Source of the DNA: Pseudovirgaria hyperparasitica
Taxonomy: Eukaryota
Assembly: GCA_010093815.1 (NCBI GenBank)
Contig: ML996579.1
Strand: one strand, 5' to 3'
Length of the DNA stretch: 64,000 nt
Shown here: positions 1,478-60,500 of the stretch, piece by piece
How the letters are laid out: each line of letters opens with the position of its first letter
Numbering within the stretch: the stretch's first letter is position 1
Position numbers and translations under genes: made by a program
Notes under the pieces: generated by a model
What the model was told of the DNA's origin: nothing
The model's database searches: none
What the model saw: the letters and a program-made list of their open reading frames with translations, nothing else

Positions 1478-4400
1478 TGCAAATGCCCAACAGCAATAAA
1501 CTTCTGAAATGAGCAGGATTGAGCAAGTATTCGCTTCGTAGTGGTAGGTTTATATAAGAACTGTCATCGCTTTCCTCCGGTACAGGACATTTGCCTCTCT
1601 GCCATATCTTCTCGCTGTTCGTCATGATAGCAACCTTGGTTACATCTGGGCAAAGCCACATTTCTGGGCAGGTTAAACTCTTCCAGAAGGTAAGATCGGC
1701 ACCGCTCATCCGAAAGAAGAAGGTACCACACCTACTCTACGCGCAAGGCCTCCCTTCGCGGTCGGCTATCACTTGGCTCGACTTGGCTAGCGTGTGTTTA
1801 TGTTAACCTCACTTGGCAAATCGATTTGTAGCACAGTATCTTGATAACTCCCCGCTCTTCAAGACTTACTATGACCAATTAATGAAGTATCCACAGGTTC
1901 AGCTGTATGTTCAGGGAGGATATTGCAGAAATGGGACCAAGGTGAGCACCAAGATGGCGAGTTCGGACGATCGGCAGTGCGCTTGGCACCAAGCCTTTGC
2001 CTACGACGATCTGGAGGATCACACGGCATGCTCTGTATGAGACACAATCTGTGTAAGGCGATGTGGAACTTTAGAGAAGCATTGGAACTTGTCGGATATC
2101 TGTATCCTCCTGTACGACGCTGTCATCGTTCTCGTGATGCTCATCAACTAACTCCAGGAAAAGTGCACACTGCCAAGCATCGCGGCCTTGCTGACATGCA
2201 GGCGGAATCGCAAGTGCAATCTTACTTCGGCGGGGTACTCAAGATAGCAGGTAGGGCTTCACCGACAGTCATACGTTCAGATCTTACGTAGCTTGCAGGT
2301 ATTCGCCAAATTGTACTCAGATGTCTATGCTGTGTTCGACTCAAATTGGGCATTGTACTATGCGAGATCATCTACAAATCTCACAATGGTTAGCGCCAGT
2401 CCAACGAACAGAACGGTCATGGCGACCCTAAACTCGCGCCTGTGAAGACGATTGTAATTCTGTTCGAAGATCTGCGCACCGTAAATACGAGCGTTGTCGG
2501 CACTCATGATGACCCTGCGCCAGATGTAAGCATATATGTCAGACAGAAGGATCTGTGAGTTACATAGCTATAGCAATCGCTAGCGCCTCCAAAGCTGTAC
2601 AGATTAGGCTCCAGCTCCATCATGCGATAATCAGCTAGTGGCTGAATGTTCCCAATGTTTGTGTTCACATCACACGATGAACTTTACCCACCCTGCCGGC
2701 CAAGAATAAGGTTGATCAAATAACTCAGGAGATACGTACTCATACCTAGAGTAAGATAAGATGCCCTGACTTCATCGTGAGACAAATTATAGACTGGCGA
2801 AAGTGTATGTTCCGCTCGCCCAGTCCGCCTGATCCACCTGGAATTCCCTGTCACAGTAACAACATGCTACTTGGAACACGACACCTGCTTAGCTACGCCT
2901 TCACTGACATCGATATAGGCAGCTGTCCATTTTCGACGCGACACGAAGAATCTGCTCCTGAGCGACGCGACATATAGTTGTCAGGTCTGCTATCATTGAA
3001 GTATGCCGAAATGTGGAGATACGACAGTGTTGGAGTTTAGAATGGTACGAGAGTGTCGATTTCCAGACTGAGTATACAGGTCAAGGGATAGTATCATAGT
3101 CCTGTTTTGCGTTCTACCACACTGGGCAGTCATGCATATGCCACTTGGCTGTCGAGAGTGCGCTTGGTGGAAATGTCTAAGACGCAACATTTCCATGATC
3201 GCTTGATCGTTTTAGGTCCTGGAATAACACATCTTTGTCCGATCCGCTCTGGCACTCTCTGTGCTGGACGATTGGCCCGACACTCGATGTTTGGCTACGT
3301 CGGTATGTATGGCGTGCTCTCGCAGGTAATGCCCATTCGAACGTCGAAAAAAATAAGCTGGAGAATGTTCAAGGGGCCACTCTGGAAACCTTCACCGTTC
3401 GCTTTCGCCCTTTTGATTGACATATATCGAAAGACTGGAGCCCCTGCTCCTTGCCTACCATTTGCCATCGTAAGTGGTATGCAGACACGAACAGTATGTC
3501 AGTATCACCAGGCCGAAAAGGATTCGAGCTGTCAAGGCGTTGACAAATTACAGCGATAAACCAACGAGCGTTCCGAAGCTGTCGTTCGTGTCTGTGTCGA
3601 TGCTGGATCCGAGATGTAGGTTATAATCCGCCCTATAGATTTCCTTAATATAAGGAAAGCTCAGATTAGGCTGCTGAGATAGCAGTTCCTTCAGAGCTTC
3701 CAGATAGCTGAACCTATTGGAATGAGACATGTGTGGCTTGTAATGTTGGAAGAGATTGCCCAGACCTTGCTTGTGTAGCCACGGTCCGCATTTGACGACG
3801 GAGGCATAGATACCACTTGGAGTAATGACGATGATGTCCAAGAACTTCATGAGATGACTTTGACGCAGTACTGTTAGACTAATGATATATATAGGCTCTC
3901 TGTTGCAAGTCTAGTGATTGAGCTCCGCTGAGAGCGCTCTTGACGCGAATGCCCGCACGGCCACAATAGTGGACAGGTGAAGAATTGCCAGTGCGTTCTT
4001 TTCCATACGTGTTTCTAGCATCTGTATGAGGCTCGATAAGTCGCTCGCCTGTCTATAGCAAGTGCGATGTACTTTCAGGGTTGCTTATTTGGGGGATAAC
4101 TTGGCTTTCCTCTGGCTGCACTTTATAGAGCCCGTGCGGGATATAGGTAGTTTAGACATGGGCGTGTTGCTGCACGTCGACAATCGAATTGCGATCGATT
4201 TCATAATATTTGAAGTTCTGTTGCGCAAGATTCGATTACCAAATTTACCCAGTTAATCTTAGGGCGTTGTTGGTGACAGATCTGACGTCACTTTAGGCTT
4301 TCCGAAATGAGATAAGGGACAGCCTTTGTATTGAAATACTAAGGCTATAAATGAAATATGAATTTTGAGGGTGATAGGATCGATGTGCGGCTTCGTATAC

Positions 4401-6164
4401 CTGTCGCCAGGAGTCTCATCCTTTACGTGTTCGAACTCACATACCTGGATAAGATGTCTGTGAAATCTGAATAATAACTAGATCTATCTTACTCTTATGC
4501 AGCAGATAGACAAGAAAAGTTCACGGAGTCGATTTGATTGTGTCTTCTCGACGATAGCATCGATCGCAATCCAGCGTCAGTCCATGTAGGATCTTCTAGT
4601 TCGGCATGTCGCTTAGTGTTCCACGTCGTGTCTCGACTTTACGCTTCCTGTATGGATGGATAATTTCACAGAGCACGGGAGTCTGCCTTGGAAGTTGGCA
4701 CAAATCCTCGGCCGAGAAAGCATTAGGTAAGCAGACGGGATGCCAGCTTGGTATCCAGGGCAGCACCTGATGTACATATGATGATGCCTCAAAGTCTTGG
4801 ACGTGTGAGTGGGAATAAGCAACCCAGGCAGCGCTATCCGTGATGTTTCTGTGATGGCGAGGTCAGTCTCAGATCAGCATGGACTGTAGCAAGTATTCAC
4901 ATATTCCTGCTGGAGGTGTATTGATCTCAGAAAGCAGCTAGCATAATATTAGTGGTATTTCTCCATTCGGTGCAGATCTTTGAACAGGTGGTGATACATG
5001 GGTCGCCCCGGTGCTGTAATTCTTACGGATCAGCATAACTGCATACTCGATATCATTAGTCAGCGTTCTGGAAGCATAGCACTATGCAGGCTCCTGCAGG
5101 TACAGGAAGAAGCAAGACTGAGGTTGCGATCTGCCATAACTTCCTCTTCGTGAAACCCAGTCCTCCTCATACTGGAGCCGTTGCAGAGGCAATTCTGGTA
5201 GGCTGTCAAGTCGGTGACGATGTACAGAGACTGAGGAGCGGCATGGCCTGACCGATGGGCGAGTGGAATATCGGTGGCGGTGTAAATCGGCATGCAACCT
5301 ACTGCGTGAGCTTCTACATATTAGGACTTGCATGGTACGTCAAAGTGCTGCGCGCTGGCAGTCTGCGCCTTGTGCGTGGCCCCGTAACGTGCCTAGATCA
5401 GACGTAGTGCAGGCTTCATGCTGGCAAGTCATTCCCATCCTTGTCGTAGGGATTACAGTTTATGATATTAGCAACTTTTGTGTGAAATGTGACGCATCGG
5501 ATCCCACCGCGACACGGACAAGTCGACGCATGAAGAGTTTATCTGGGGAACGACGGCAGCGGAAGAAAAGGGCCCACGAGGCGGAGGAAAGGGCCTTGCC
5601 AGCGCCGGTTAGGACTTCCGAATATGCCATGGCGAGGTGGGCGAATCCGAAAATGATACGATGCAAAATGGCGCATTTGCAATTTCTCTGCGTGGGTGAG
5701 GCGTTCGTTGTAACTTGCTGGCATATTATTATTCATTGCTGTGCGAAGCCTAAACCCAAAACCCAGCTCGGGGCACTGAAGCCTGAAGAAGCCTTAGAAA
5801 GCCTGAGGCATCAACACTCTTTAAATTGCCATTGATCCCTCCCACACCACTTTTCTTGACCGCAATTCGTACACATTCACTTCTTACTGTTAGCCATACA
5901 AACAAAACATATCAGTACTTACTCTCACAGCCGGTTCGCAGTAGTAGTCGTTTGCCACTACGAATACCGGGACCAAGGTGCGTTCAGTGTCCAATGCTGG
6001 CACTAGAAGCTCGCTTAACGCAAATTCTGATGACGTTAGTTAAAACAACAAACTTCATCTCCTCGACTCTTCGCTCAACTCGGATCTTCGCTAACCCGCC
6101 AATTCCACTATCCAATGCTGTGCTAAGCCGTCTATACATCACTTCGTCTACTCAGATTTATTTT

Positions 6165-6697: not shown

Positions 6698-8278
6698 ATG
6701 ATCAATACTGAGATCCCAAAACACTACACCGCCTCGCCGTCCTCTCATCAAGGGACGCCACATCTGACCATCAATCGCGATGCGACCTTGGACCTCGACT
6801 CCAGCACTGCCTTTGAAGGTCCGGAGAAACTCCTGGAGGTATGGTTCAGTGCTTCCCCTGAAACTCTCCCGAACACGGTGCCTGCCAACGGGCTCAAGGC
6901 AGTATCACCGGAGACATGGAAAGAAATGCTGGATTTGGTCAACTGCAAGGTGCTATCCATTGTTGAATCTGAACATGTGGATGCCTATCTTTTGTCTGAA
7001 TCCTCGATGTTTGTCTTCCCCCACAAGCTTGTCTTGAAGACCTGTGGAACCACCACTTTACTATGTGGTCTGCCCCGTATGCTTGAGATTGCTTCTCTCT
7101 CTGCGGGCTTCCCAGGCCTTGATTCCGACCTTCCGCAAGGCGTACCGGCTGCAGCAACCCCGTACCGTGTGTTTTACAGCCGCAAAAACTTCTTGTTTCC
7201 CACGAAGCAGCACGGTCCCCACCGTAGCTGGCGTGACGAAGTCCAATTCTTGGACCGAATGTTCCTGGGAGGAAGTGCGTACATGATCGGAAAAATGAAT
7301 GGTGAACATTGGTACCTCTACATTACTGGACCTGACACACGTTTGACGCCACCGGGCACACCTGATTCGGACAAGAGCTTGCTTCTCGGAACGGAGACCA
7401 AGTACTTGAGCCCCCCTCAGCGTATGATACCTTCATTGAGCTCCGACGAAGCGCAGGACGAGACTCTGGAAATTCTCATGACCGACCTTGATGAGGAGAA
7501 TGCTCGGCAATTCTATCTCGAGGACGCGAGTGCGGTCGCGGAGGGCAAGTTTTTCCAGAAGACTCGCGATGCGCGAAAGGCTGCGATTTCCAGCCTCGGG
7601 ACTATTGAGGAGGAACATGGGATTAATTCACCAGCATCATGTACTAATGGACTGGGGACCTCAGATGACTTTGACGTGTTCGAGCAGACCTCGTCCGACC
7701 ACTCGGGATTCTCCTCGGACGAAGACGACTTAACGTTTCCAGAGGAGCTTACAACTGAAGGACACACGCTTGGGACTGTCGTGTCTGAAGCCTGCGGGTT
7801 GTCTGATGTTTACCCGACAAACAAGTACCCCGATGCCAAGGTCGATGCGTACCTCTTTACACCATGTGGCTTTTCTGCGAATGGAGTCGTGCCGTCTCCT
7901 GAAGGACCTAAGAGCGGCCACTACTTTACTGTTCACGTCACTCCAGAACCCCAGTGTTCGTACGCGTCGTTCGAGACCAACGTTCCAGCACGCCAGACGG
8001 GTCGCGAAACTGCCGATATTGTCGAGCAGGTTGTCAAGATCTTCCAGCCAGGCCGTTTCAGTGTCACTCTATTCGAAGCGAAGGACGATGACAGCCCGGA
8101 AGGCACGCTCGGCTTCGGTCCCGCAGCCAAAAGCTCGCGACGCATGGAAACAATCCCTGGTTACAAGCGCATTGATCGTATTGTCCATGACCTTGACGGA
8201 TATGATCTTGTCTTCAGGTACTATGAACGCTGGGATTGGAAGGGAGGTGCACCACGTATTGGCGAGGTCGGGGCCTGA
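6698..8278 (+). CDS. SPE2: S-adenosylmethionine decarboxylase proenzyme
   Basis: 526 aa ORF with FEGPEKLLEVWF, self-cleavage motif YLLSE/SSMFV, LKTCGTT, FTPCGFSANG and TVHVTPEPQCSYASFETN. Confidence 0.97.
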   Translation: MINTEIPKHYTASPSSHQGTPHLTINRDATLDLDSSTAFEGPEKLLEVWFSASPETLPNTVPANGLKAVSPETWKEMLDLVNCKVLSIVESEHVDAYLLSESSMFVFPHKLVLKTCGTTTLLCGLPRMLEIASLSAGFPGLDSDLPQGVPAAATPYRVFYSRKNFLFPTKQHGPHRSWRDEVQFLDRMFLGGSAYMIGKMNGEHWYLYITGPDTRLTPPGTPDSDKSLLLGTETKYLSPPQRMIPSLSSDEAQDETLEILMTDLDEENARQFYLEDASAVAEGKFFQKTRDARKAAISSLGTIEEEHGINSPASCTNGLGTSDDFDVFEQTSSDHSGFSSDEDDLTFPEELTTEGHTLGTVVSEACGLSDVYPTNKYPDAKVDAYLFTPCGFSANGVVPSPEGPKSGHYFTVHVTPEPQCSYASFETNVPARQTGRETADIVEQVVKIFQPGRFSVTLFEAKDDDSPEGTLGFGPAAKSSRRMETIPGYKRIDRIVHDLDGYDLVFRYYERWDWKGGAPRIGEVGA

Positions 8279-35823: not shown

Positions 35824-36195
35824 TGTGGTGAGCCATCGCCACGTGTGTCCCTTTTATAAATGGCTATGTTCCTAGTATAGTAGTCGCGACGAACTTACAA
35901 GTATCTCTCCTAGGTATTATAAGTTCTCTTTAAACGCACGACTTCTTATTAGTTCTCTTTTATAATAGGACGGGTCTATATAATACTCTTAATTAATTCT
36001 TTAATAGCTAAGCCTAATAATTAATACCTATAGAGGCCCATGAACGTAAGAAAAGATTGAATAGTTAAATATTAGTAATAGGGGAAGCGCGCCGAGTAGA
36101 ATAACCAAGGAAAACGCCCTCCTTAAATATATAATAAAGCTATATAATCGAGCCAGGGACATATATATATAGGGCTATAGGAGCGGCCTTCTATA
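35824..36195 (-). repeat. 3' LTR of A1
   Basis: Direct repeat of 46890-47261 and reverse complement of 57546-57918. Confidence 0.95.
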
Positions 36196-46889: not shown

Positions 46890-47261
46890 TATGGTAAGCT
46901 ATCGCCACGTGTGTCCCTTTTATAAATAGCTATGTTCCTAGTATAGTAGTCACGACGAACTTACAAGTATCTCTCCTAGGTATTATAAGTTCTCTTTGAA
47001 CGCACGACTTCTTATTAGTTCTCTTTTACGATAGGACGGGTCTATATAATACTCTTAATTAATTCTTTAATAGCTAAGCCTAATAATCAATATCTATAGA
47101 GGCCCATAAACGTAAGAAAAGGTCGAATAGTCGAATATTAGTAATGGGGGAAGCGCGCCGAGCAGAATAACCAAGGAAAACGCCCTCCTTAAATATATAA
47201 TGAAGCCATGTAATCGAGCCAGAGACACATACATATAGGGCTGCAGGAGCGGCCTTCCACA
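46890..47261 (-). repeat. 5' LTR of A1, followed by a tRNA-like PBS at 46885-46861
   Basis: Ends ..ggccttccaca on the + strand; adjacent gttcgtagtccgggtacgacctcta resembles a tRNA 3' end. Confidence 0.95.
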
Positions 47262-47265
47262 ATAG

Positions 47266-47919
47266 TTATTACTTTCTATTATATATTACTTACGGTAGTA
47301 CTAAATCTATAATATATAGTACTTATATAACTAAGAAGTATTATTACTTATAGATATTTAAGTAAGTTCGAATAACTTTACGTAGATTTACTTATATTAG
47401 TATAGATTACTACTAGGCCTCTAGTAACCCCTACTAATAAGGAGCGTAGTACTACTAATCGTAATACCTTAGAGAAGGCTTTCTATAAGCTATATATCTA
47501 AGGTAAGGATTACGCCTAGGAGTATAATTCTAATAAGATCCGTAAGGATTTATTAGAATCTACTATAGCTATTATTACCGCGATTACTAGATAATATCGT
47601 TTTTCTTAAATTATTATAGATTCTTACTAATATATATTAATCTCTATAATAGTACTAAAATCTCTACTACTTCGGACTTCTTTCTATATACTAGCGATAT
47701 TAAAATTCCTAGAAAAGGTTCTAGTAAAAAGGCTAAGGTTCCTTCCTCACGCGTACTAAAGAGCTATAAATTTAGGGAAGATAGCTCTAATCTAGAAGTT
47801 TCTATACTAAAGGTATATAGTTCTATACTAATTATTAAATCTTTTTACTAATTTATATAATTCTTAGCGTGCCCGCGCTAGTCCATCCCTCTCTATCCCG
47901 GGTCCCGCTACTCTATAGG
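47266..47919 (+). pseudogene. Middle exons of the antisense spliced gene of element X
   Basis: RIPed + strand frame with gtaagt ~47362, a second intron ~47590-47653 and gtatat..tactaat..ttag ~47813-47867. The frame resumes after element Y at 55949. Confidence 0.55.
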
Positions 47920-48174
47920 TGTTAGGACGGGAACCCTAACGGACCTATATGGACCATTCTAATCTATGTAGCCACGTAGCGGCCAGAGCTAGGATGAGTT
48001 AGCTAGGTTAAGCGAGGTTACTATATAAGTGGACCGTATAAACCGATTCCTACTCGTTAGAAATCAACCTCGTATAAGAGTAAGACTACTCTATAAATAT
48101 ATTCCTATGTCTCTCTATGAACTATTAGACTACTATCCTACGTCTTTACTTATTATATTTTAATTTCTCCCTAT

Positions 48175-51100
48175 ATAGCACGACGGCAGCTTATAGAGAT
48201 AGCTCCTACTATACGCTATAATACCCGTAGCACGACCTCCTACGAGAGACTCTCCCTAAATCTAAATAAGGAGAATAGTCTCCCTACGACCACCTCCACC
48301 GATAAGTATACCCTATAAGCTATCGCACTAATAACTAGTACGGTATTCCGTGCAACCGTGGAAGACTACCTAGATAATAAGGAAGGAGTCTATTATACTC
48401 CATCGCGGTCTAGTTTACACTATACTAGACCTATCCTTACTATAAGACTAGACCCTATTAACGTTAACGAACTAATTCGTTAGAACCGACTAACGTTAAC
48501 CACGCCTTACGATAACGTATATACTAGGCTATACGCGGAGAGGTAGTATTAGGCTTAGCTCGAATAGTAACTTCGCGAACTTAACGAAGTATAAGGACAA
48601 ACCGCTAGACTCGAAGCCGCACTACGCGCTTTAGTACTAGTAGCAACTAACCTATACTAATATGGACTAACTTAAGCCGAAATAGTCTAACTAAGTCTAT
48701 TACTATCCTAGTTACCTCGGCCTAAGAAACTACCTTACTTCGACGGTAAAACCAGGAAGAGCTTTTACGAATGGGCTTACTAGTATAGCCGATTCTTCCA
48801 TCTATTCACGAACGATAGTAATAAGATTAGGTTCGTATAGAACTACCTAGACCTAACGCCATCTAAACGTTAGATGGTATATCGGATCGAACACCCTAAG
48901 GATATATATAACTAGGACACGTTCACCGAATTCCTTCTTTAATACTTTAGCGATAGAGCCGAGCGACGCGAATAGGCTTAGAGCCATATCTTTAAGACTT
49001 AATAGCGAGAAAGATAATCCCCGTTATAACTCCTCGAATACCTCCGACCTCTCTAGAGAGAAGCCGAGGAAGATTATATGGTTCGATAATACGACGACTT
49101 TAAAAGGTCCCTTAATCCGAGCGTAAAAGAACGCATCGACCTTATAACGTCTATCCCTACCGACCTTTAGGTACTCGCGAATCTTATAGAATAATACTAG
49201 CGTACAATAAATAACCAACGCCGTATAGGCGCACGACTATCCCTACTAATCTAATCCGATACGAAATCGTCTAAAGAGGACCGGTTTAGTAATAGATCGC
49301 GCGGAATACCTCATGGGCACTACCACTCTACGAACTCGAGAGGATAAGGCCCGTACCGCGGATCTTCCCACCGGTTAATATATTAAGACACGAGAAACGA
49401 CTCGCATAAACGACCTAAAGTCACCTACTATACTTATAGTAGGATAGGCCATATAGTACCCAAGTACCGCTCTAGGAAACCACCGAATACTAATATAGAT
49501 ACTAAGTTAGTTATATACTATAAGTGCTAGTAGCTAGGACACATCGCGCCTAACTACCCGGTATATAATATAAAAAACTAACTACCTACGAGAAACCCTC
49601 GCGACTTATAGACGTAACTAAAATAGAGGGATAACTAGCTAACTAGTATATCGAACTATAGGCTAGGCCTATCGAGGTCCCCTATGGATAACATTAGACC
49701 GTAATACTTAATAGCGGTTTAGCTACTAACGTTATATCGACTTAATAAGCACGAGAACTTAACGTCGATATTTAAGTACTAATAGGTGCCACCTTCTATG
49801 GTATCGATGGTCCTATTAAATCGTAGGGTACCTATACTATTAAATACAGTATCTAGGATAGCGGGGGGAAGTGGAAACCCTACTACTTAACCTTTATTAT
49901 AGTAGACAGCCCCTTCGATATGATCCTCGGTATACCGTAGCTCGAAAAATATAACCCGAAACTAGACTTTATCTAGAAAATAGCTGGCTGGCGTATATAC
50001 CTACTATAATAGAATCTAGTATAGCTAGTCGACGACGAATAATTCCAGAAGGACTACGAAAAGGCAATCTCTACTATCTACATCCTCTCACTTACTTAAA
50101 ATAGAGAACTTAGTATTAAAGTAGATGAAAACCTACTATATTAGTATAAAATATACTAACATGTCGCGTTAGCGATCGACTCGTCCGAATTACCTTAATA
50201 CTAACCTACTAATCTTACTATTAACCTCGAGGACGGTTAATAACCCCTATACGGACCCATCTACCCTCTATTAGAACCTAAGCTATAGGTCCTCCGAGAA
50301 TACATCGAAAAGAACCTTACGCGAGGATAGATTAGGCCTAGTATATCCCTAGCCGGAGCTCTAATCCTCTTTATAAAGAAGAAGGATAGGAGTCTCCGTC
50401 TATGTATCGACTACCGTAGCCTAAATAATATTACACGAAAGAATCGTTACCTACTACCTCTTATCTCCGAGTCTATTAATAGACTAGAGCGCGCGAAGAT
50501 CTTTACTAAGCTTAATCTACGCGACATCTACTACCGCCTACGTATTAAGAAGGGCGATAAGTAGAAAACGGCGTTTAGGACCCGTTATAGATACTTTAAG
50601 TACATAGTAGTCCCTTTTAGACTAACTAACGCGCTAGGGACCTTCCAAGCATACATTAATAACGCGCTAGTAGGCCTACTTAACACGACGTGCATCGTAT
50701 ACCTCGACGATATCCTTATCTTCTCTAATAACGAAGAAGAACACATCTAGTACGTACGCGTAGTCCTAGATAGACTAGAAAAACATAAGCTATATATTAA
50801 GCTATCTAAATACGAGTTCCACTAGGACCACGTTAACTTCCTTAGCTTCGTTATTACTAATTAAGGTATAACTATAGAAAGGGATAGGGTCGCTACTATC
50901 GTAGACTGGCCTAAACTAAAATCGGTTTGAGACATACGTGTCTTTATCGGATTCGCTAATTACTACCGAAAATTCGTTAAGTACTTCTCCCGGCTAGCAG
51001 CACCGCTTAACGCGTGTACTACCACTATAGATTCGTCTATTACGGTCCGCGGTAGATAGAAACAGCGTAATATTAAATCGTAGCCTATAGAATTATCGGA

Positions 51101-53350
51101 AGGCGAAAGGGCCTCCTTTAAGAAAATCAAAGAGGCATTTACTACTACTCTATTACTAGTGCACTTCGACCTAACTAAACCTATCCACGTCGAAACCGAC
51201 GCGTTAGGATTTATAATCTTAGGCATTCTCTTCTAGTCTAGACCAACTAAGTCTAAAAAGGTCTAATAGCATCTAGTTACGTTCTTCTCGCGTAAAATAG
51301 TCGATGTTAAGACTAGATATACTATCCATGACCAAGAGCTACTAGTAATAGTAGAGTCGTTTAAATAGTGGCGATATTATCTTAAAGATGCTATATATAA
51401 CGTCGAGTTACTAACTAATTACTATAACTTAAAGGGGTTTATAAGCACGACGGTTTTAAACCGTTAATAGGTTTAATAGGCTAAGTAGCTTACGAACTTT
51501 CACTTTATAATCTACCATCGACCTAGAAGTATAAACCTAGCTAATGGGATATTAAGAAGACCTAACTATAAAGAAGGCGCCTAGGATCATAGTGGCCATA
51601 GGGTTCTAGAGTAGCTATAGGCCTAACTCTTAAGGACGAGGTTGGATTTTAAGTTATTAGGCGATTAGCGAGATGCTAACGTCGATACCGGTAATCGAAT
51701 CTCTAAGACCGAAGCCGGTAACTAAAGACGCGGTACCGAAGTCCCTAGTAGGCCGTTTATTAGCGCTATCGGGAAGGGCGATAATGCCTAGCGTGAATAT
51801 CTAATTAACCTCGCCTAGTTAATAGTAGATCTATAGAAGATAGACCCGATAGTTTTAAAGTTATATAAAATATAGTAAGATAGGTTATTATAGACTAAAG
51901 TAGACTATAAGTAGACCTTCGTGGACGGCTTACTTTACTATAATAGAAAGTACTATATGCTAACGGGTAACGCGCGATTTAACGTAGTTAGCCGATACCA
52001 TGACGCTAACCTAGTAGGATACTTTAGGTATATACGTACCCTAAGCTTAATTCGTTAGTACTATTTTTAGGAAGATATACCTAAGTACATTAAAGAATGG
52101 ATAGCTACTTATCCGATTTATTAAAGAACGAAGGCCCCTAGGCATAAGCCATATAGGAATTTATAGCCTCTTTTAGTCCCCCTCTTTATATAGGAAGATG
52201 TTACTATAGATTTCATAGTTAACTTACCTCCAAGCGAGATGCTTCGAATAAGTTATAATTCTATTCTTATTATCGTGGATAGACTTATAAAGATATCTAG
52301 GTATATCCTAGTGTAGAAGACGATTACATCCAAAGAACTAGCGTAGGTGTTCTAGAACGAGATTATTAAGGTCTATAGTATACTAAAAAGGATCGTTACG
52401 GACCGAGGAAGTACCTTCACGTCCAAATTCTAGACGTTATTCTATGAAATAGTAAGTATAAATAGGAACATATCTATAGTATTTTATCCTTAGACGGATA
52501 GCTAGATAGAGCGATAGAACTAGACGCTCGAAGTCTACCTACGCGTATTCTATAATTTCGAGTAGGATGACTAGGCCTCCCTACTAAGTATAGTAGAGTT
52601 TATATATAATAATAGTCGTTATAGCACGACTAGTATTATACCTTTCTAGGCGAACCTCGGACGCAGTCTAAGGATAGGTTTTGAGCCTTATACGGTCTAA
52701 TTTGATCGAATAATAGACGTGAACGTCCACGCTTAGGAATTAGCGATTAAAATCTTCGAAACCGCACGTAACTATCGCGCTATAATCTAATAAGTAAACG
52801 ACTCGTATACGAAGTACTATAATAGGTTAGCTAAGGATTAGACGTATAAGGAGGGCGACGAGGTCCTTCTTAACGTCTGTAATATACGAACGTCGCGAGT
52901 AAATAAGAAGCTCGATTATAAAATGGCTGGTCCCTTCCGAATCAAACGTCGTATCGGTATAAGAGTCTACGAGCTCGACTTAGGAAGCGATATAAGAATC
53001 TATAACGTGTTCCACGTCTTACTACTCGAAAGATTTCGACCTAACGTGTATAACCGTACGAACGTGTAGTTACACTCTATTATACTCTAAGATAGACTAG
53101 ACGTGTTCGAAGTGGACTATATTATCGAATATAGGATTAATAAAGACGGTATTTAGAAATATAGAATCCGTTAGAAGGACTATACTAAGGACGAGGACAC
53201 CTAGGAACCAGCGGTGTATATCTTAAGTTCTATAATGGCTATATATAAGTAAAAGATGTAGAATAGCGCATTATTAATGTAAATATAGCGACGTTGCGGT
53301 CGTTATAAAAAGAAGAAGGATACTATAGAGAACGAAGTGCTTAATTAGGA
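48175..53350 (+). pseudogene. gag-pol of Y (RIP-degenerate; ends approximate)
   Basis: [41 protein letters not shown] and EDT[W]EP. Confidence 0.9.
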
Positions 53351-53910
53351 AATCTAGACGCGCACTAGGAAAACTCTATAAGGTAGCCCTACAATTTAAG
53401 TATCGCACGGTTACTAGACGTGAAGAAAGCGTAAGTAACCATTTTAGAAACGTGACGCGACATACCATAATAGAAGAGTCTAGAATAGACTAACATAGAC
53501 CATTACACACGAGAAAAATATAGGACTAAGAACCTAAAAAAGGTACCCTACCATAGAATTAAACTCTTAACACGAAATATAAAAGGTTAGAGTACCCGAA
53601 CCGATAACTACTAGGCCACTAGTTCGGGTACTCTAATGGAATTTATAGAGATAAACTAATTAATATACGGTGCCCATACTTAGGTGACTTAAGGAAAATC
53701 AGAATATAGAAACCGATAGTTATAAGCTAAGCGAGCGCACATATAATATCGTTAAGTTAAGAATTAAATTACTAGAAACTAGCCGACGGGTATCTAAACG
53801 GTCTAAAAAAGGACTAAAACGGATAAAAGCTAGGCAAATAGAGCCGGCGCGCACCACCTATAGTAGATCTAGAATATATAGAGCTAATATATAGAGCTAG
53901 AACCATAGAG

Positions 53911-55415
53911 CTACTCCTCCATCTTATCATCCGTTATAACCTCTAGTATAGTCCTCTCTAACCGCACGACATAGCGGCGGAGGGTAACGACCTTAGCCTC
54001 TAGAGTAATAACCCGATCTATTAGAGCCTAGAGAGAAGAGCCTTAAGCGCCGGAGCGTAGCGACTAGGTCTAAAGTTAGCTAACATGATCTAGAATAATC
54101 TAGAAGGGAATATATACCCTCTTACGAGGCGACTTAGAGGGAGAAATAGTAGACCTCTTACGAGATCCGTTAGTAGCGCGAGACGGATAAGGGGGGATAG
54201 AGTGAATCCTCTCTACGGCCTCTATAGCTAGGATAGACTCCCTAGAATGGGTAGCCTAGGCGCTAGGGATCTCGCGGCGGCTAGAAATATTAATAGGTGT
54301 TAAAAATAATTAACGTGTTCGTAACTTACACTTTAATAACCTCTAGAAAGAGCTTATAGCGCTCCCTAAACTCCCTCTATATAGTAGGTAGGTAGCTATA
54401 AGGACCCCCGAGGGTCTCGCGAACGCGAAGGTCGTTATATATATCTTATATACGCATAGGAACCTAAGAATATATTAGCGCGAATAACTTTAGATTATAC
54501 TAGACTAAGATAGCCTATTATACTTACCTATAGATAAGTCTTACTAGTTACGGTATAGTGGTAGTAGCGGGTAGATAGAGTAAAGATAGGGCGTATAGGC
54601 CCGTCGCGGTTAGTAGAGTAGTAGCTAATACTAGAGTTAGAGCGAAAGAGATATTTAGAGCCGGCCGTATAGCCCTTAATATACTTATAGCATATTAAAC
54701 CGTAGTTCGCCGTTTTCCTATAGCGTAAACCGCGACCACGTTTAGTATCCTCGGCGACCTAGGCCTTATTATTAGTAGGCTAGGGTTTAGAGTAAATATT
54801 AAGGTCCTAAAAGGACCTAGAGCGACTAAATCAATCTATATTAGACCGGAAGGGAGAGCGGTAAGGCGGCGGCGCGGGTAAGCGCGAGGGCTCGCGATTA
54901 TCGTCTATAATAAGATCTTCTTTATCCTCTAGAGAAGATAGAGTAGGCGGCGTACGCGTTAGAGTAAGGGGAGAACTTACGACTACTTTATCCATAAATT
55001 CAGTACTAAGATTACCTAGATTAGAGCGACTAGTAGCTATATTAGTAGTAGAGGTAGAAGTAGTAGTAGTAGCCCTAGCTACCCTCTTCTCTAACTTAGA
55101 GCGCGCCTTCGTGCTACCTTAATAGGTAGGCTTCTTAGCCGGCGTAGCCGGGGAGAAGGTAATACCTTTAGAGCGAGTCTTACGAGAGGAGGAGGTAGGC
55201 TTAGAGATAGGACTAGTATTAGATATCTATATACACACGTTAGCTAGAGATCTAAGGAAGGAATATTCGTCCACCCTTAACGATAATTAATAAAGCTAAA
55301 TTAGTAACCGTAATAACGCGAATGGGTCATATAGGACCGGTTCTAATAAGAATAGACTATAATAGACCCTTCTAAACCTAAACTAGGGAAGATAGTATAT
55401 GAATTAACGACTTAC
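53911..55415 (-). pseudogene. Antisense four-intron gene inside Y (~384 aa; Cys cluster and C-terminal coiled coil)
   Basis: Introns 55415-55227, 54527-54464, 54329-54281 and 54117-54070 have GT..(C)TAA[C/T]..TAG signals. Coding exon lengths 699/134/163/159 keep one frame, from ATA (inferred RIPed ATG) 55226 to TAG 53911. Confidence 0.72.
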
Positions 55416-55948
55416 CTTAAGAGCGAGGTAGATGTACTAGAGAATAAAATCAAAGGCGAGCGAAGCTAAATATATACTCGACTAAAGTGGCGATTACGTG
55501 TCCTAGGTAGTAGCCACGAAGCAAGGGATAAGCGCGTGCATAAACTGGTAAAAGTGAACTAGAATCTCGAGTTTACCTATATTAAGGATGGTTATAACGT
55601 TATAGGAACTTAGTTACGGATATATAGATATACGGTGGATTATAGAGACTTAGGATTATATATACTTAAGTACTTTGGGGCGAAGTATAAAAAGAAGAAG
55701 AATATTATTAGGACGGGAACCCTAACGGACCTATATAGACCATTCTAATCCATGTAGCCACGTAGCGGCTAGAGCTAGGATGAGTCAGCTAGGTTAAGCG
55801 AGGTTACTATATAAGTAGACCGTATAAACCGATTCCTGCTCGTTAGGAATCAACCTCGTATAAGAGTGAGACTACTCTATAAATACATTCCTATGTCTCT
55901 CTATAAACTGTTAGACTACTATCCTACGTCTTCACTCATTACAATAGG

Positions 55949-57545
55949 TTTCTATAGAGGAGTTTATAGCTATAAGGCGTACTATATAGAATTTATAGCG
56001 TTAGAACAAAAGGCTAGAGACTTATATTATAAAGCTCTATACTATACTAAATAAGAACTAGCGGAAGGAATTAGATGTAACTATCGCGGTAATTAGTACT
56101 TCTACTTCTACTCCGACTTAATCGGTTTAGATCTATACTAATTAGTACTAATATATCTCTTTTATCTGGCGTTTTTAGTTTTTTAGTTTTAATTTTAAAG
56201 CGACCTTACTTCTTCTAGATAGATTAGTACAAGTTTATATAGATCTATATAGATCTTTATATTTTCTTTTAGCTTTCTTAATTTTATCTTTCTTTAATAA
56301 TAACTTCTTTAATCTCTTTAGTAATCTATACTAATCTATACCGATCGGCACCGATTTTTAATGTCTATTTCTCTTAGTAAATTATTTTTCTAAGTCTCTT
56401 TTTTAGTTAAATTTTTAAAGTTCTAAGTTCGAACTTTCTAAGGAAGTTCCTTAATTCCTTAGAATATTTTAAAGATCTATATCTCTTTTACCTTCTTCCT
56501 TTTAGGCGGCCGTTCTTAGCGCCGAACTATACTAAAAAACGTTAAATTACTATACTTTAGTATAATTCTCTACGATTCCGTAGCTTCCTTTACTAATTAC
56601 TACTTATATACTAATATCGCTACTTTACTAATATTTATTATAGGTTTCTAAGTATCTTTATTAGAATTATATCCTTTCTAATAAATTTTATATAGCTATG
56701 TACTATCTTTAGCGTGTTACTAGCTAAGTATCTACTTAACTTCGTAGATATCTATACCTTCTTACGTAACTACTTTATATAGTATCTATTCGGAACGATC
56801 TGGTAATAATAAGGTATAAAATGGCTCGAGAAGCGTAATATGGAATATATTATATATCTTTAATATAGAAGGGAGTTATAACTTATATACCTAGTTATTA
56901 ATTACACGAGTAATCTTATATAGACCTATTATTATATAGTTAAGCTTCTTCTTTAGCCTAATACTATGAATATTCTTACTATTTAGTAAAACTTTATCCC
57001 TAATATTAAAGATCATGGGTTTTCTACCCTTATTATAGTGCGATTTACTATAATTCATAGTATCTTATAGTAACTTTATAACGCTTCTTTACGTTTAGAA
57101 TAGTTCTATAGTAATTTCTATTACTTTAACGTTAGGTCGTTCTACTTTAAACTAAGTCCCTAAGAACTACGTATTATAGTTCTAACCGAAGTTTACTTTA
57201 AATAGACTTACGTAGGTTAACGTATATCGGCTATTATTATATACGAATTCCGCGATATAGACTAACCTTATCTAGTTATCGTACTTATAGTTATAATATA
57301 CGCGTAAATACGCCTCGACTATCTAATTCTACTACTCTATCTATCTATCTATTTATAGATAGAACGTAGTACTAAGTTTCCGCTTAATTCCTAGTATATA
57401 GTAGAAATCCTTCTAAAATTTAGATATTATCTATAGATCTCTATCTAAAACTATACCGTTTAGTATACTATAGAGCCGGACTACGTTACGGAGTAGTATA
57501 TCTATAAGATCTAGTACTTAGATTATCTTCCTTATAGGGATATAG
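55949..57545 (-). mobile_element. Gypsy element X: integrase core, GPY motif and chromodomain (minus), plus last exon of its antisense gene (+, ~55949-56120)
   Basis: De-RIP minus reading: IVSDRD..RKLSTAFHPQTDGQS, GPYKITRVI..HNVFHITLLEP, DIYEVEQIL..WKGY..DTWEP. Interrupted at 57545 by A2. Confidence 0.85.
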
Positions 57546-60500
57546 TATAGAAGGCCGCTCCTACAGCCCCACATGTATGTATCCCTAGCTCGATTACATG
57601 GCTTCATTGTATATTTAAGGAGGGCGTTTTCCTCGGTCATTCTACTCGGCACGCTTCCCCCATCACTAATATTCGACGATTCGACCTTTCCTTACGTTCA
57701 TGGGCCTCTATGGGTATTGATTATTAGGCTTAGCTATTAAAGAATTAATTAAGAGTATTATATAGACCCGTCCTATCGTAAAAGAGAACTAATAAGAAGT
57801 CGTACGTTCAAAGAGAACTTATAATACCTAGGAGAGATACTTGTAAGTTCGTCGCGACTACTATACTAAGAATATAGCTATTTATAAAAAGGGACACACG
57901 TAGCGATAGCTTACCATAATTTTAGAGGTCGTACCCGGACTACGAACTTATAGGGGGAGATTAGAACTCCGAAACTAGCTTAGGGGAAGTATATGGCGTG
58001 CCTAATAAGGTAGTCTAGACTTACTAGATCGAAGCTACGAGTCCGGAAAATAGGGAGTCCGGAGTCGCTAGGGGCTAGCCTCTTAAAAGTAGCCGTAAAA
58101 AGCATATGTATGCTAATATAGGTGATAGCGCGACTCGAAAATGTCTTAGGGGAATGGGATATAAAACAGGGCTAGATAAAGCAGCAAAGAAGAGTTTAAA
58201 AACGACAAATATAACCTGTTTAGTACTACTATAGCTGTTATTCATAAACACGGCCATACGAGTATACCACTTTAGGAACGCCTTACACGAAGATAATAAT
58301 ATAAGTAGGATACCGTGAACCTTATATCGATGAAGACGATAGTAATAGTTCACCTTATAAAGGGATTAATTAACATAGAGAAGGGATGATAGATGTTATG
58401 GGTAGACGCATTAGGCTAATCTTTAGTTAAGGTAATCCCTTAACTAATAACCTTACCCCCAGCGTCTCTACTAGTATACCTACTACTAGTAATAGTACGA
58501 TAGGAGCTTAAAACAACGACCTAGTAACTCGTAGAGAGATACTTAACTTCTTCGCAGCATTTACGCGATAAGAAAGGATAGTACCTCTATCTACCCTAGC
58601 CCCTAAGCGCTTTAAAGGAATAAATATCACGGCCTTCCTTCGGAAGTACGAGGACATATATATAAACTATAAAGTTCCGCCTAATAAGAAGATAACCTCC
58701 CTACCGTTATACTACGAGGACTATCTCCGTCCTACTATTAAAGGAATAAGTAGGTTTTAGAAATAGTAGTAGGCCACGCTACGTAAAGAATTATTAAAGG
58801 AATTCTCTCTATTTAACTCCGCCCTTAAGGAAGGTACCATCTACTTTGTCCGAAAATACGTGGAAATAGTTAAAGTAGACCCATCCTACTCTCTCCCTAT
58901 ATACTACTCCCGGGATCGTATTATTATAGAGAAACTTACGGCTAAAGGAAGCCTAAGCTCGTATTCGTAAATAGAGCTCTTCCTAGAAGGGCTGCCTAAT
59001 AGTCTTAAGGCTCGGGCTATAGAGAAATATTAACTTACGATGGAAGCACACAGTTACGACTAGGTAATTATCTATGGCTTCGTATCACGAAAGGCTAGAG
59101 CACTTAAGGAACTGGCTTATATTAATAAGTACTTAGCCGCACAAGAGCTAGCCATAGCCATATACTATAAATTAAAGATAGGGAGTAAGAAGACTAGCTT
59201 AGAAGAGTAGTTACATGAAGAAAGAAGAACTAATGAATTTAGCCACCCCTCTCTAGTCGAAGTATACGTCGCGCTAGAATCGGATAAGTTTAACGAGATA
59301 GTAGAGAGATTTAGTAAACTAGACCTTACGTTAATTAAGATAAAGTCCTACTTTACCTCTAATCCCTTATTCCCATCCCTTAAGAAGTACGAACCTAAGC
59401 TACTTTCGGCTATTATTAACTAGTAGGCGCGAAGGCTAAATCTTTTAACACACCCCTAAGTACGAGGCATGCCTATAGAACTAATATAAGTTTATCTATA
59501 GAATTATATATAGAATAGAGAATATATCTCTACCCGAGACTCCTAAGGAGGTATTATAGCCTATGATAGGCCTCGAAGACTAATCGTATGCATTACGTAC
59601 GGAGGGGATTACCTAATATATAGATATCCGGAGATAGTAGGATATATTAGAGACGGATTACTAAATATTAACGGGGTACGAGTATTCTAAGGGCGTTTCG
59701 GGGCGAACGGAGAAGAAATCCTATTACTACCCTCCTCGGTAGGGCTATAAGCTACTCTATAAGCTATCCGGAACTACATAGTAACGGTTTAAAACGGCCT
59801 AAGCTAGTACGGAGGGGGAGTGAAGGTTTCTACGTCTATAGTAAATATTAACGCTTCATAGGGAGTGCTAGTATATAGTATTAGTGCAAAATCTATAAAG
59901 GGTCTCTACTAGGCCTCGGCGGATAGCGATTCGGAAGAAGAAGTTACGTCGCCTAAGAGTAAGAAAGATAGATATATAGAATTCCACGAACGCTTTAACG
60001 TGGCTAGTAATAGATATATCCACGAGGAGATAGCCCTAGAAGAGCCCGCTATACTTATAATATCTAGAAGGGGGATTACGAAGAGTATACCTAATCGTAC
60101 TAAGAAAAGAAAGATCGCCTATCTCCGCGGAATGCGTGAAGGGTAGTATATAAGAATTATTAAGGAATAGAAGGACGGCGAGAAGAGTAGTAACTAGAGA
60201 ACGTCTAAATAAGAGCCAACGGCGCCTAAGGATAAGATAGATAAAGGGGATGGCCTAAATCCTAGTTAAAAGACACGTATCCGAGGCGTTAAGCTTAATA
60301 ACTATCTACGCGAGGGATAGCGGCTAAGCATAGAAGCTAGCGAAGCATGGCTGGTACGCGTTCTAGGGATAACTATAAATATTACTATTAGTAAACTATT
60401 AAGCCTTAATAGCGACTTACGTCGTGCGGTATTCGAGAAGGGCGCCCCCGACTTTATAGCTAGAGAGGTCTATAAGGCTTAAGAGGAGAGAGCCGAGAAG

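Follow-up and report, generated by a model that had tools for sequence, protein, structure and literature searches.

The 64,000 nucleotides (nt) of contig ML996579.1 of Pseudovirgaria hyperparasitica (GCA_010093815.1) that were analysed here (the window) contain, at 47920-55944, an 8.0 kb long terminal repeat (LTR) retrotransposon, denominated Y. The question raised by this locus is what occupies the roughly 2.4 kb that separate the end of its pol from the polypurine tract in front of its 3' LTR (55689-55702, plus strand), where an original prediction made from the letters of the DNA had placed an intron-containing gene antisense to the element. Our analysis confirmed that the antisense gene and its introns are real features. 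It is probable, in addition, that Y carries the copy, inactivated by repeat-induced point mutation (RIP), of an accessory gene belonging to one clade of fungal Ty3/gypsy chromoviruses, which lies tail-to-tail with pol, keeps its introns through reverse transcription and may encode a nuclear, trans-acting factor.

Stops separate frames poorly in RIP-mutated DNA: the certain pol frame of Y contains 7.6% stops, which is no fewer than in two of its wrong frames. For this reason the coding signal was judged by the pattern of purines and pyrimidines, which is unchanged by transitions. In the spliced model of the antisense gene the purine content of codon positions 1, 2 and 3 was 0.556, 0.460 and 0.345, respectively (chi-square 34.5, p 3e-8), and the order of the positions was identical in each of the four exons. 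The maximum reached by 96 unspliced segments of 1155 nt from the AT-rich half of the window was 26.1, the unspliced segment over the gene itself gave 12.1, and in the flanks (53262-53910 and 55227-55700) the chi-square of the periodicity was at most 0.7. In a 150-nt sliding scan, phase 2 extended from about 55225 to 54505. Phase 0 followed at 54445-54355, where the signal was weak and tied at one point (54415); phase 1 then covered 54325-53935, and no consistent phase was seen beyond 53905. The periodicity shifts its phase at an intron of 64 nt and at another of 49 nt, is steady across an in-frame intron of 48 nt and ends at the stop codon.

To guard against the bias that arises from picking a frame with few stops, 5000 sequences of the same dinucleotide make-up were simulated by a Markov model and each was read in its least-stopped frame. 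The difference in purine content between codon positions 1 and 3 was 0.214 in the gene as compared to a simulated mean of 0.016 and a simulated maximum of 0.125, so that none of the 5000 simulations reached the observed value, and the same was true with all pyrimidine-purine-purine codons excluded. The fewest stops in the simulated least-stopped frames were 12, the number also observed in the gene, with a mean of 25. The periodicity is equal on both strands, and a purine/pyrimidine codon-usage score trained on pol cannot discriminate between them; the gene was assigned to the minus strand because splice signals at both phase changes exist there only and because the stop count is lower. With a coding region that is antisense to pol and fills the space from there to the 3' LTR only in part, the gene has the arrangement of the antisense extra genes denominated aORF-3R in plants.

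In detail, the minus-strand coding model comprises 384 codons with 12 internal stops (11 TAA/TAG and one TGA). Exon A (55226-54528, frame 2) encodes a Ser/Thr/Pro-rich basic part, in agreement with the basic Ser/Thr-rich N-terminus that had been predicted, followed by a Cys-rich motif (54692-54528). It is joined to exon B (54330-54463, frame 0), to exon C (54118-54280, frame 1), which contains a basic stretch resembling a nuclear localisation signal (NLS), and to exon D (53911-54069), which continues in frame 1 through a heptad repeat (53914-54027) up to the TAG stop codon at 53913-53911, close to the place where the phase 1 periodicity fades (about 53905). Exons A to C are delimited by their translation and by the purine periodicity. 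Coding intron 1 (54464-54527, 64 nt, phase 0, GTAAGT..CGCTAAT..TTAG) marks the change from phase 2 to phase 0 of the periodicity, and coding intron 2 (54281-54329, 49 nt, phase 2, GTAAGT..TTAAC..CTAG) the change from phase 0 to phase 1. Coding intron 3 (54070-54117, 48 nt, phase 0, GTATAT..GCTAAC..TTTAG) is recognised by its splice signals and lies in frame, with 3 stops in its 16 in-frame codons.

The span of 53911 to 55415 that had been proposed for the gene fits the TAG codon at one end and a GTAAGT donor at 55415 at the other. Four introns giving one frame of about 384 residues had been expected; the frame and three coding introns stand, while the fourth intron (55227-55415, 189 nt, GTAAGT..GCTAAC..ATAG) is best read as a candidate intron of the 5' untranslated region (5'UTR), a reading for which only its signals and candidates at a like position in two relatives speak. 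The region between this donor and the polypurine tract (55416-55688) shows no purine periodicity and is, from its position, presumed to hold the promoter and first exon of the antisense gene. The start codon of Y is uncertain. It might be an ATA at 55226 or 55232 that RIP possibly made from an ATG; if translation began instead at the ATG at 54995, which is intact and in frame, the protein would have 307 amino acids.

Two further observations concern the surroundings of the model. Inside exon A, 13 nt past the ATG at 54995, a fifth GTAAGT..CTCTAAC..CTAG module is found (54980-54929, minus strand, 52 nt). It was rejected as a coding intron, since the phase is continuous across it and its splicing breaks the frame, and it may be an alternative or decoy splice site. 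About 300 nt beyond the antisense stop, at 53587-53636, lies a perfect inverted repeat of 15 nt with a 20-nt loop, 100% complementary and unusually intact for RIP-mutated DNA, which could be terminator-like or a protein-binding site.

With the pol of Y, 1200 relatives with an E-value of at most 1e-10 were obtained among 8000 scored candidates; an alignment was built from ten pol relatives, and a set of 69 chromovirus loci from metagenome contigs (494 kb in total), all oriented with pol on the plus strand, was searched. The motif C-x2-C, 4-8 residues, C, [LIVMAF], x, followed by a GT donor, occurs at three places in the six frames of these 69 loci. All three (in loci L001, L002 and L019) are antisense to pol and downstream of it, and the pol strand contains none. 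The three loci share the arrangement C-x2-C ... C-x2-C-x5-8-C-[LV]-x, which is directly followed by a phase-0 intron. The gene of L001 (296 amino acids) consists of the exons 4748-4482, 4432-4206, 4133-3923 and 3864-3679 and that of L002 (257 amino acids) of the exons 6844-6551, 6479-6343, 6295-6154 and 6102-5902; in both, the introns are canonical (GT..AG, 47-72 nt) and the spliced frames are open. The phases of the coding introns are 0, 2 and 0 in all three of Y, L001 and L002, with similar exon sizes, and in each of the four genes, including that of L019, the first coding intron is placed one residue past the last Cys. Splice sites and frame, the conservation of which in other copies had been named beforehand as decisive for the prediction, are therefore kept. 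Like Y, both L001 and L002 have a candidate 5'UTR intron upstream of the start, of 134 nt and 196 nt, respectively. The presumed homology of the four genes rests on their position and strand, on the placement and phase of the introns and on the Cys motif.

The gene of L019 (6575-7529, minus strand) has three open exons separated by two introns and lacks the heptad tail. Downstream of the Cys-rich exon, neither of its two other exons is related to those of the other genes, and an acidic, Pro/Thr-rich tail ends the protein; the gene looks like a recombinant of the Cys-rich exon with a foreign 3' half. The repeat units of L001 and L002 measure 7.1-7.6 kb. In the metagenome contigs of these two loci, as in those of L003, L014, L015, L018 and L041, the first 107-184 nt are repeated at the end. 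Apparently the element was circularised at its LTR during assembly, in which case the unit length equals the element length minus one LTR.

The Cys cluster is the part of the protein in which Y and its relatives can be compared residue by residue. RIP converts TGY to TAY, and at what we take to be the positions of the known zinc motifs of Y, Cys has become Tyr in five of six cases in the gag knuckle and in both cases in the integrase. The first pair of the antisense protein, C-Y-K-Y-I-K-G-Y, aligns with C-V-K-C-A-K-G-Y of L002 and C-Q-R-C-L-Q-G-F of L001. Relative to the intron, Tyr occupies positions -3, -10 and -13 in Y; Cys occupies these same positions in L001 and positions -3, -9 and -12 in L002. 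The TAT and TAC codons of Y, which the original prediction had read as former Cys codons rather than as Tyr or His, hence align with Cys of intact relatives, and of the predicted cluster both C-x2-C pairs and the last Cys are supported, its middle positions being less certain. Tyr, Cys and His together account for 12 of the 55 residues of the motif region of Y and for 3.6% of the residues elsewhere in the protein. The integrase zinc region of Y is similar to the motif region, with 11 of 55. A RIP-tolerant version of the motif, in which Tyr is allowed for Cys, followed by a donor, occurs once in the six frames of the 64-kb window, namely at 54692-54528.

The remainder of the protein is characterised by NLS-like basic runs around the third intron and by a C-terminal heptad repeat, L-x6-L-x6-L-x6-L-x6-V over the last 38 residues with Val or Ile four places after each, where a C-terminal coiled coil had been predicted. 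By reading, the C-termini of L001 and L002 would also be helix-like, with charged heptad stretches; the last exon of L001 gave sub-threshold coiled-coil matches only in Pfam.

Metal binding by the Cys-rich module seems plausible from its residues. The Zn-cluster fold for which a profile search and structure prediction had been proposed did not emerge, as there was no Pfam or PDB match and the predicted fold was poor. In detail, no Pfam family at E ≤1 was matched by the peptides that exon 1, intact in each case, encodes in L001, L002 and L019, and the Y exons, read through their stops, gave sub-threshold matches only (DUF6581 0.17, Lzipper-MIP1 0.028). The best hit of L001 exon 1 in a PDB sequence search had an E-value of 0.35, its best Atlas score of 0.85 was below the meaningful level, a 76-residue open stretch of Y retrieved nothing usable from the Atlas, and AlphaFold2, run on L001 exon 1 with a three-row alignment, gave a mean predicted local distance difference test (pLDDT) value of 39.5. 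With RIP-damaged queries, a HMMER search of Y exon A against 1.84 billion representative proteins gave no match, and a word-based protein search gave 507 candidates for exon A and, against longer proteins, 91 for exons C-D, none of which scored. A Zn2Cys6 cluster (PF00172), with its spacing C-x2-C-x6-C-x5-12-C-x2-C-x6-8-C, was excluded by spacing and profile: the spacing of the last triad (x2, x5-8) agrees with it, 5-17 residues separate the third Cys from the first pair, and 39-53 residues lie between the two halves. Nor is the Y protein a basic leucine zipper (bZIP) protein, because the basic stretch is separated from the heptads by about 25 residues and an intron and because no bZIP profile matched.

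The boundaries of the insert can be read from the polypurine tracts. In Y, a second copy of the tract lies in the last codons of pol (53307-53320, plus strand), 21 of 23 bases (53304-53326) being equal to 55686-55708, and the 2368 nt between the two tracts (53321-55688) constitute the passenger module, which carries the gene on its minus strand. L001 has an identical purine run of 12 bases at 3340, the pol stop, and at 5211, before the LTR; L002 has an identical run of 11 bases plus TA at the end of pol and at 7580, where its tract was placed after a purine run at 7167 had been rejected. The runs differ among Y, L001 and L002 and are doubled within each. In the module-less loci L013 and L006, pol stop, purine run and LTR start are contiguous. 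Because the tract is found on both sides of the modules (2368 nt in Y, 1859 nt in L001 and 1909 nt in L002) and is contiguous with the LTR in L013 and L006, the modules sit exactly at the junction between polypurine tract and LTR. We infer from this comparison that the doubled tract is probably the footprint of one old insertion, and since the two tracts of any one element have stayed alike, both may be in use, or replication may copy one from the other.

The distribution of the gene was followed on a tree of pol with 24 rows, i.e. the window and 23 of the 69 loci with an unbroken pol frame of at least 850 amino acids, the other 46 loci being left out. Y, L001 and L002 were grouped together with a support of 98, and with L019, L003 and L005 with a support of 100. 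In the other 18 rows, not all of which have enough sequence behind pol, the motif was not found. One gain with losses and two gains would both fit this distribution.

Copies of the module were also examined in sequencing reads by aligning contigs of four runs to 47000-57000 at a likeness of at least 80%. Contigs of two of the runs, X1 and X2, cover all 30 bins of this region. At two sites in the coding region the alternative letter was found in 30 and 34 distinct contigs, and among 40 listed of the 595 differences from Y nearly every one is a transition (C>T, G>A, T>C or A>G). Among the differences listed, the coding region contains a single indel, of 3 nt, and the non-coding 53262-53910 two indels of 1 nt. 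From the coverage with many variants it follows that the module exists in many diverged copies. An aORF-3R is found in most copies of its family or lineage; here, the gene occurs in tens of contig variants and in three of the five other rows of the six-row pol clade. One contig joint (54553/54866) points to a variant without 312 nt inside exon A, the fitting sides being short (29-30 letters).

Taken together, the gene is assigned to the element lineage and not to one copy because of the tens of contig variants and the three intact relatives of the same build and place. According to the reading that we consider probable, a module of 1.9-2.4 kb would have been inserted once between the polypurine tract and the 3' LTR, with its gene tail-to-tail with pol. 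Its introns pass through reverse transcription because antisense introns are not recognised in the genomic RNA of the element; this established logic, already put forward in the original prediction, applies to the three coding introns and probably to one in the 5'UTR. The gene would have its own promoter, and its mRNA, which would be spliced, would begin somewhere in the interval that separates the first donor from the 3' polypurine tract. The protein of Y, L001 and L002 would combine a module of at least six Cys, basic NLS-like stretches and a C-terminal heptad repeat, and by analogy with plant aORF-3R genes and with HBZ, a retroviral antisense protein discussed below, it might be a nuclear, metal-binding and self-associating factor that acts in trans on the element cycle. 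If so, transcription or chromatin at the LTR would be its most likely target, with the integration complex as the second choice. The gene would have been kept open, together with its exon structure, over a long divergence, before RIP killed it in the window along with the rest of Y, where its 12 RIP-type stops and its Cys to Tyr changes leave it dead.

Several observations weigh against this reading. Nothing but the Cys-rich first exon and the phase-0 intron behind it is common to the gene of L019 and the other three. BLASTP among the proteins of Y, L001 and L002 gave nothing significant, the similarity among the four proteins being non-significant, and a comparison of the Y gene with the 69 loci gave a best E-value of 1.7 in tblastn and no match in tblastx. 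The transcripts, splice junctions and proteins of all four genes are predicted models. L003 and L005 belong to the same six-row clade without having the gene: the repeat unit of L003 (5970 nt) leaves no room for the module and L005 has no such frame in the 1.3 kb behind pol, and the gene must therefore be dispensable or have been gained twice. The runs X1 and X2 stem from one sample, probably the window's own, and so are not independent. One contig joins 53787 to the LTR start (55708), with only 29 letters fitting on the shorter side, and copies without the coding region (53788-55707, most of the module) may exist in the same genome. Finally, metal binding and nuclear action are guesses from composition, because neither Pfam nor PDB nor the Atlas provided a relative and the predicted fold is poor.

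There are other ways in which such a module could have arisen. A host gene could have been captured, lying antisense beside an ancestral insertion, taken up at the junction between polypurine tract and LTR and merely carried since. Spliceosomal introns and an own promoter are indeed marks of cellular genes, the duplicated tract around the module resembles an insertion footprint, and both the two clade members that lack the gene and the contig variant seemingly devoid of the coding region speak for this origin. However, the open frame and the intron phases have been kept across a pol divergence of at least about 0.65 changes per site on each branch, over which a useless passenger should have decayed, and no cellular relative was found among the 1.84 billion representative proteins, the query being the RIP-damaged exon A only; we regard such a capture as unlikely. 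The idea that the unit acts mainly as RNA, its antisense transcript forming double-stranded RNA with the genomic RNA for the control of copy number while the frame is secondary, appears less likely still. Roles of this kind have been considered for the antisense transcripts of LTR elements in excerpts of PMC7264820, and the protein diverges so fast that BLAST finds nothing between relatives. The codon periodicity, the open spliced frames and a Cys pattern that ends at a conserved intron nevertheless point to selection on the protein, and the modelled transcript stops short of pol, which would limit its pairing with the genomic RNA to the 3' untranslated part of the latter.

A nested, unrelated transposon carrying its own gene would likewise form a separate insert whose ends are defined, as those of the module are, yet neither terminal inverted repeats nor a second LTR pair were found in 53200-55720, self-comparison revealed no second copy of the module in the 64-kb window and no similarity to the rest of it, and the same junction is occupied in three diverged elements, which makes this origin very improbable. 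Least credible of all is a chance pattern in RIP-mutated non-coding DNA. GTAAGT is common on the minus strand of the AT-rich region (24 in 30 kb, four of them within the antisense gene) and the density of stops hardly separates the frames, even in pol; the purine periodicity, the simulations, the place of the motif in the relatives and the intron phases contradict it. The accessory gene of the element clade thus remains the preferred reading. It can be extended, although we hold the extension to be rather doubtful, to an accessory gene of the retroviral kind, spliced and driven by a promoter of its own, in which a nuclear, Cys-rich, self-associating protein would steer the LTR or blunt the host genome defence in the manner of HBZ-type factors in deltaretroviruses. 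The inner tract would then be a working second primer site for the plus strand that enables replication with the extra 2 kb, and the tract duplication would be the first clear footprint of the route by which antisense genes come into LTR elements, namely where the polypurine tract meets U3.

The host element itself is a RIP-mutated Ty3/gypsy chromovirus. Its 239-nt LTRs (5' LTR 47920-48158, 3' LTR 55706-55944) start with TG, mutated to TA in the 3' LTR, and end with CA; they show 16 differences, 15 of which are transitions. A 5-bp target duplication, ATAGG, flanks it on either side (47915-47919 and 55945-55949), and in one contig from the organism's own reads the flanks are joined without the element. 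Together with the polypurine tract preceding the 3' LTR, these LTRs and the duplicated pentamer agree with what defines such an element. Its pol frame (48162-53320, plus strand), read through with X at the stops, matched RVT_1 (3.7e-24), RT_RNaseH_2 (1.4e-17), one of two matching RNase H models, Integrase_H2C2 (3.1e-6) and SH3_Tf2-1 (1.7e-13) in Pfam; a Chromo match at 53106-53222 was weak (0.0021, under its Pfam cut-off). Y is classified as a chromovirus because this order of reverse transcriptase, RNase H, integrase and chromodomain is found in a single plus-strand frame; gag is located upstream of pol in a different frame. The gene-bearing half of the window has about 50% G+C and the AT-rich half begins at about 34 kb. 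TpA/ApT is 1.71 in the AT-rich half and 1.78 in Y as compared to 0.74 in the host half, and (CpA+TpG)/(ApC+GpT) is 0.23 and 0.27, respectively, as compared to 1.24. Near-exclusive transitions, an excess of TpA and a loss of CpA and TpG, the signs of RIP, are accordingly all found in Y.

Some further features of this region were observed. In the leader 3' of the 5' LTR, 48 nt bounded by GT..AG (48337-48386, plus strand) are missing from a single contig in either of two runs; a deletion variant may account for this, or a copy derived from spliced sense RNA. Y is adjoined on its right by a truncated second chromovirus (56603-57544, minus strand), of which the integrase C-terminus and chromodomain remain, 35% identical to the Y pol, and in which no antisense module was seen. 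A repeat of about 260-300 nt is present in three copies that are 93-95% alike (35826-36191, 46892-47257 and, inverted, 57550-57806); these are probably LTRs or ends of another element family hosting the Y insertion.

The locus provides a gene family with an intact and comparable exon-intron structure across several diverged elements, and its short, recognisable Cys motif can be used to find further members. The polypurine tract on both sides points to the site at which the module entered, and in transformable fungi both the function of the protein and priming at the inner tract become testable questions. In addition, the purine/pyrimidine periodicity, being untouched by transitions, recovers coding regions from heavily RIP-mutated DNA.

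Parts of this arrangement have counterparts in known systems. Antisense-intron indicator cassettes are used to score retrotransposition, and an intron on the strand opposite to the element's RNA stays unspliced from that RNA. The Y gene shares this principle with the cassettes, which however are engineered, with an intron sense to the element and antisense to the marker, whereas the introns of the Y gene are natural and antisense to the element. In human immunodeficiency virus 1 (HIV-1) and Ty1, the central polypurine tract is a second, near-identical copy of the 3' tract. The inner tract of the Y clade is near-identical as well, and both copies change together between elements. It differs in lying at the pol stop, the site of the sole tract in the module-less relatives, and might simply have remained there after the insertion, with no function in priming.

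HBZ of human T-cell leukemia virus type 1 (HTLV-1) is an antisense, spliced regulator with a leucine zipper, encoded at the 3' end of the retrovirus. The Y gene resembles it, by analogy only, in being an antisense gene at the 3' end with a presumably spliced mRNA, C-terminal leucine heptads and basic stretches. It differs in that the basic stretch of Y is not contiguous with the zipper and has no bZIP match in Pfam, in that the Cys-rich module has no counterpart in HBZ and in that its promoter is presumably internal to the element and not part of the LTR. An antisense promoter of HTLV is mentioned in excerpts of PMC7264820.

In plants, according to excerpts of PMC7264820 and PMC11963269, aORF-3R genes include gene23 of Grande and those of RIRE2, PvRetro13 and Retand, the last with a TRP28 domain; they are present lineage-wide, have no clear origin, are proposed to be nuclear or DNA-binding regulators and, in Grande, have an own promoter. 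In place, strand, lineage-wide presence, lack of a clear origin and proposed nuclear role, the Y gene corresponds to this description. The plant genes, however, belong to another kingdom and to the Tat/Retand lineage and not to chromoviruses, and the proteins of Y and its relatives had, apart from the sub-threshold matches given above, no Pfam match at E ≤1 to TRP28 (PF04195, tried as a candidate and rejected) or Smc, which are named for plant aORF-3R, nor to another family.

The closest counterpart by description is brtn of Boty, an antisense extra gene between pol and the 3' LTR (excerpts of PMC7264820, PMC8365987, PMC4227169 and PMC5987419). Like Y, Boty is a fungal, chromodomain-bearing gypsy element, and the gene has the same place and strand. 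The copies of Boty (BcGypsy1) listed in PMC8365987 measure about 6.43 kb as compared to the 8.0 kb of Y and the 7.1-7.6 kb units of L001 and L002, and the room behind pol therefore differs; no protein in the library of 1.84 billion matched Y exon A.

Antisense extra open reading frames between pol and the 3' LTR are, accordingly, already known in plants and in the fungal Boty, with HTLV as a retroviral parallel, and their origin and function are called open questions in excerpts of PMC7264820 and PMC11963269. A conserved-intron antisense gene of an LTR element, this Cys motif or a bracket of doubled tracts did not turn up in the literature searched, on which the original description of brtn and the PDF supplements (e.g. 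Fig. S1 of PMC8365987) may bear. The word 'intron' is absent from both PMC7264820 and PMC11963269, and it is the conserved spliceosomal introns that constitute the striking feature of the Y clade.

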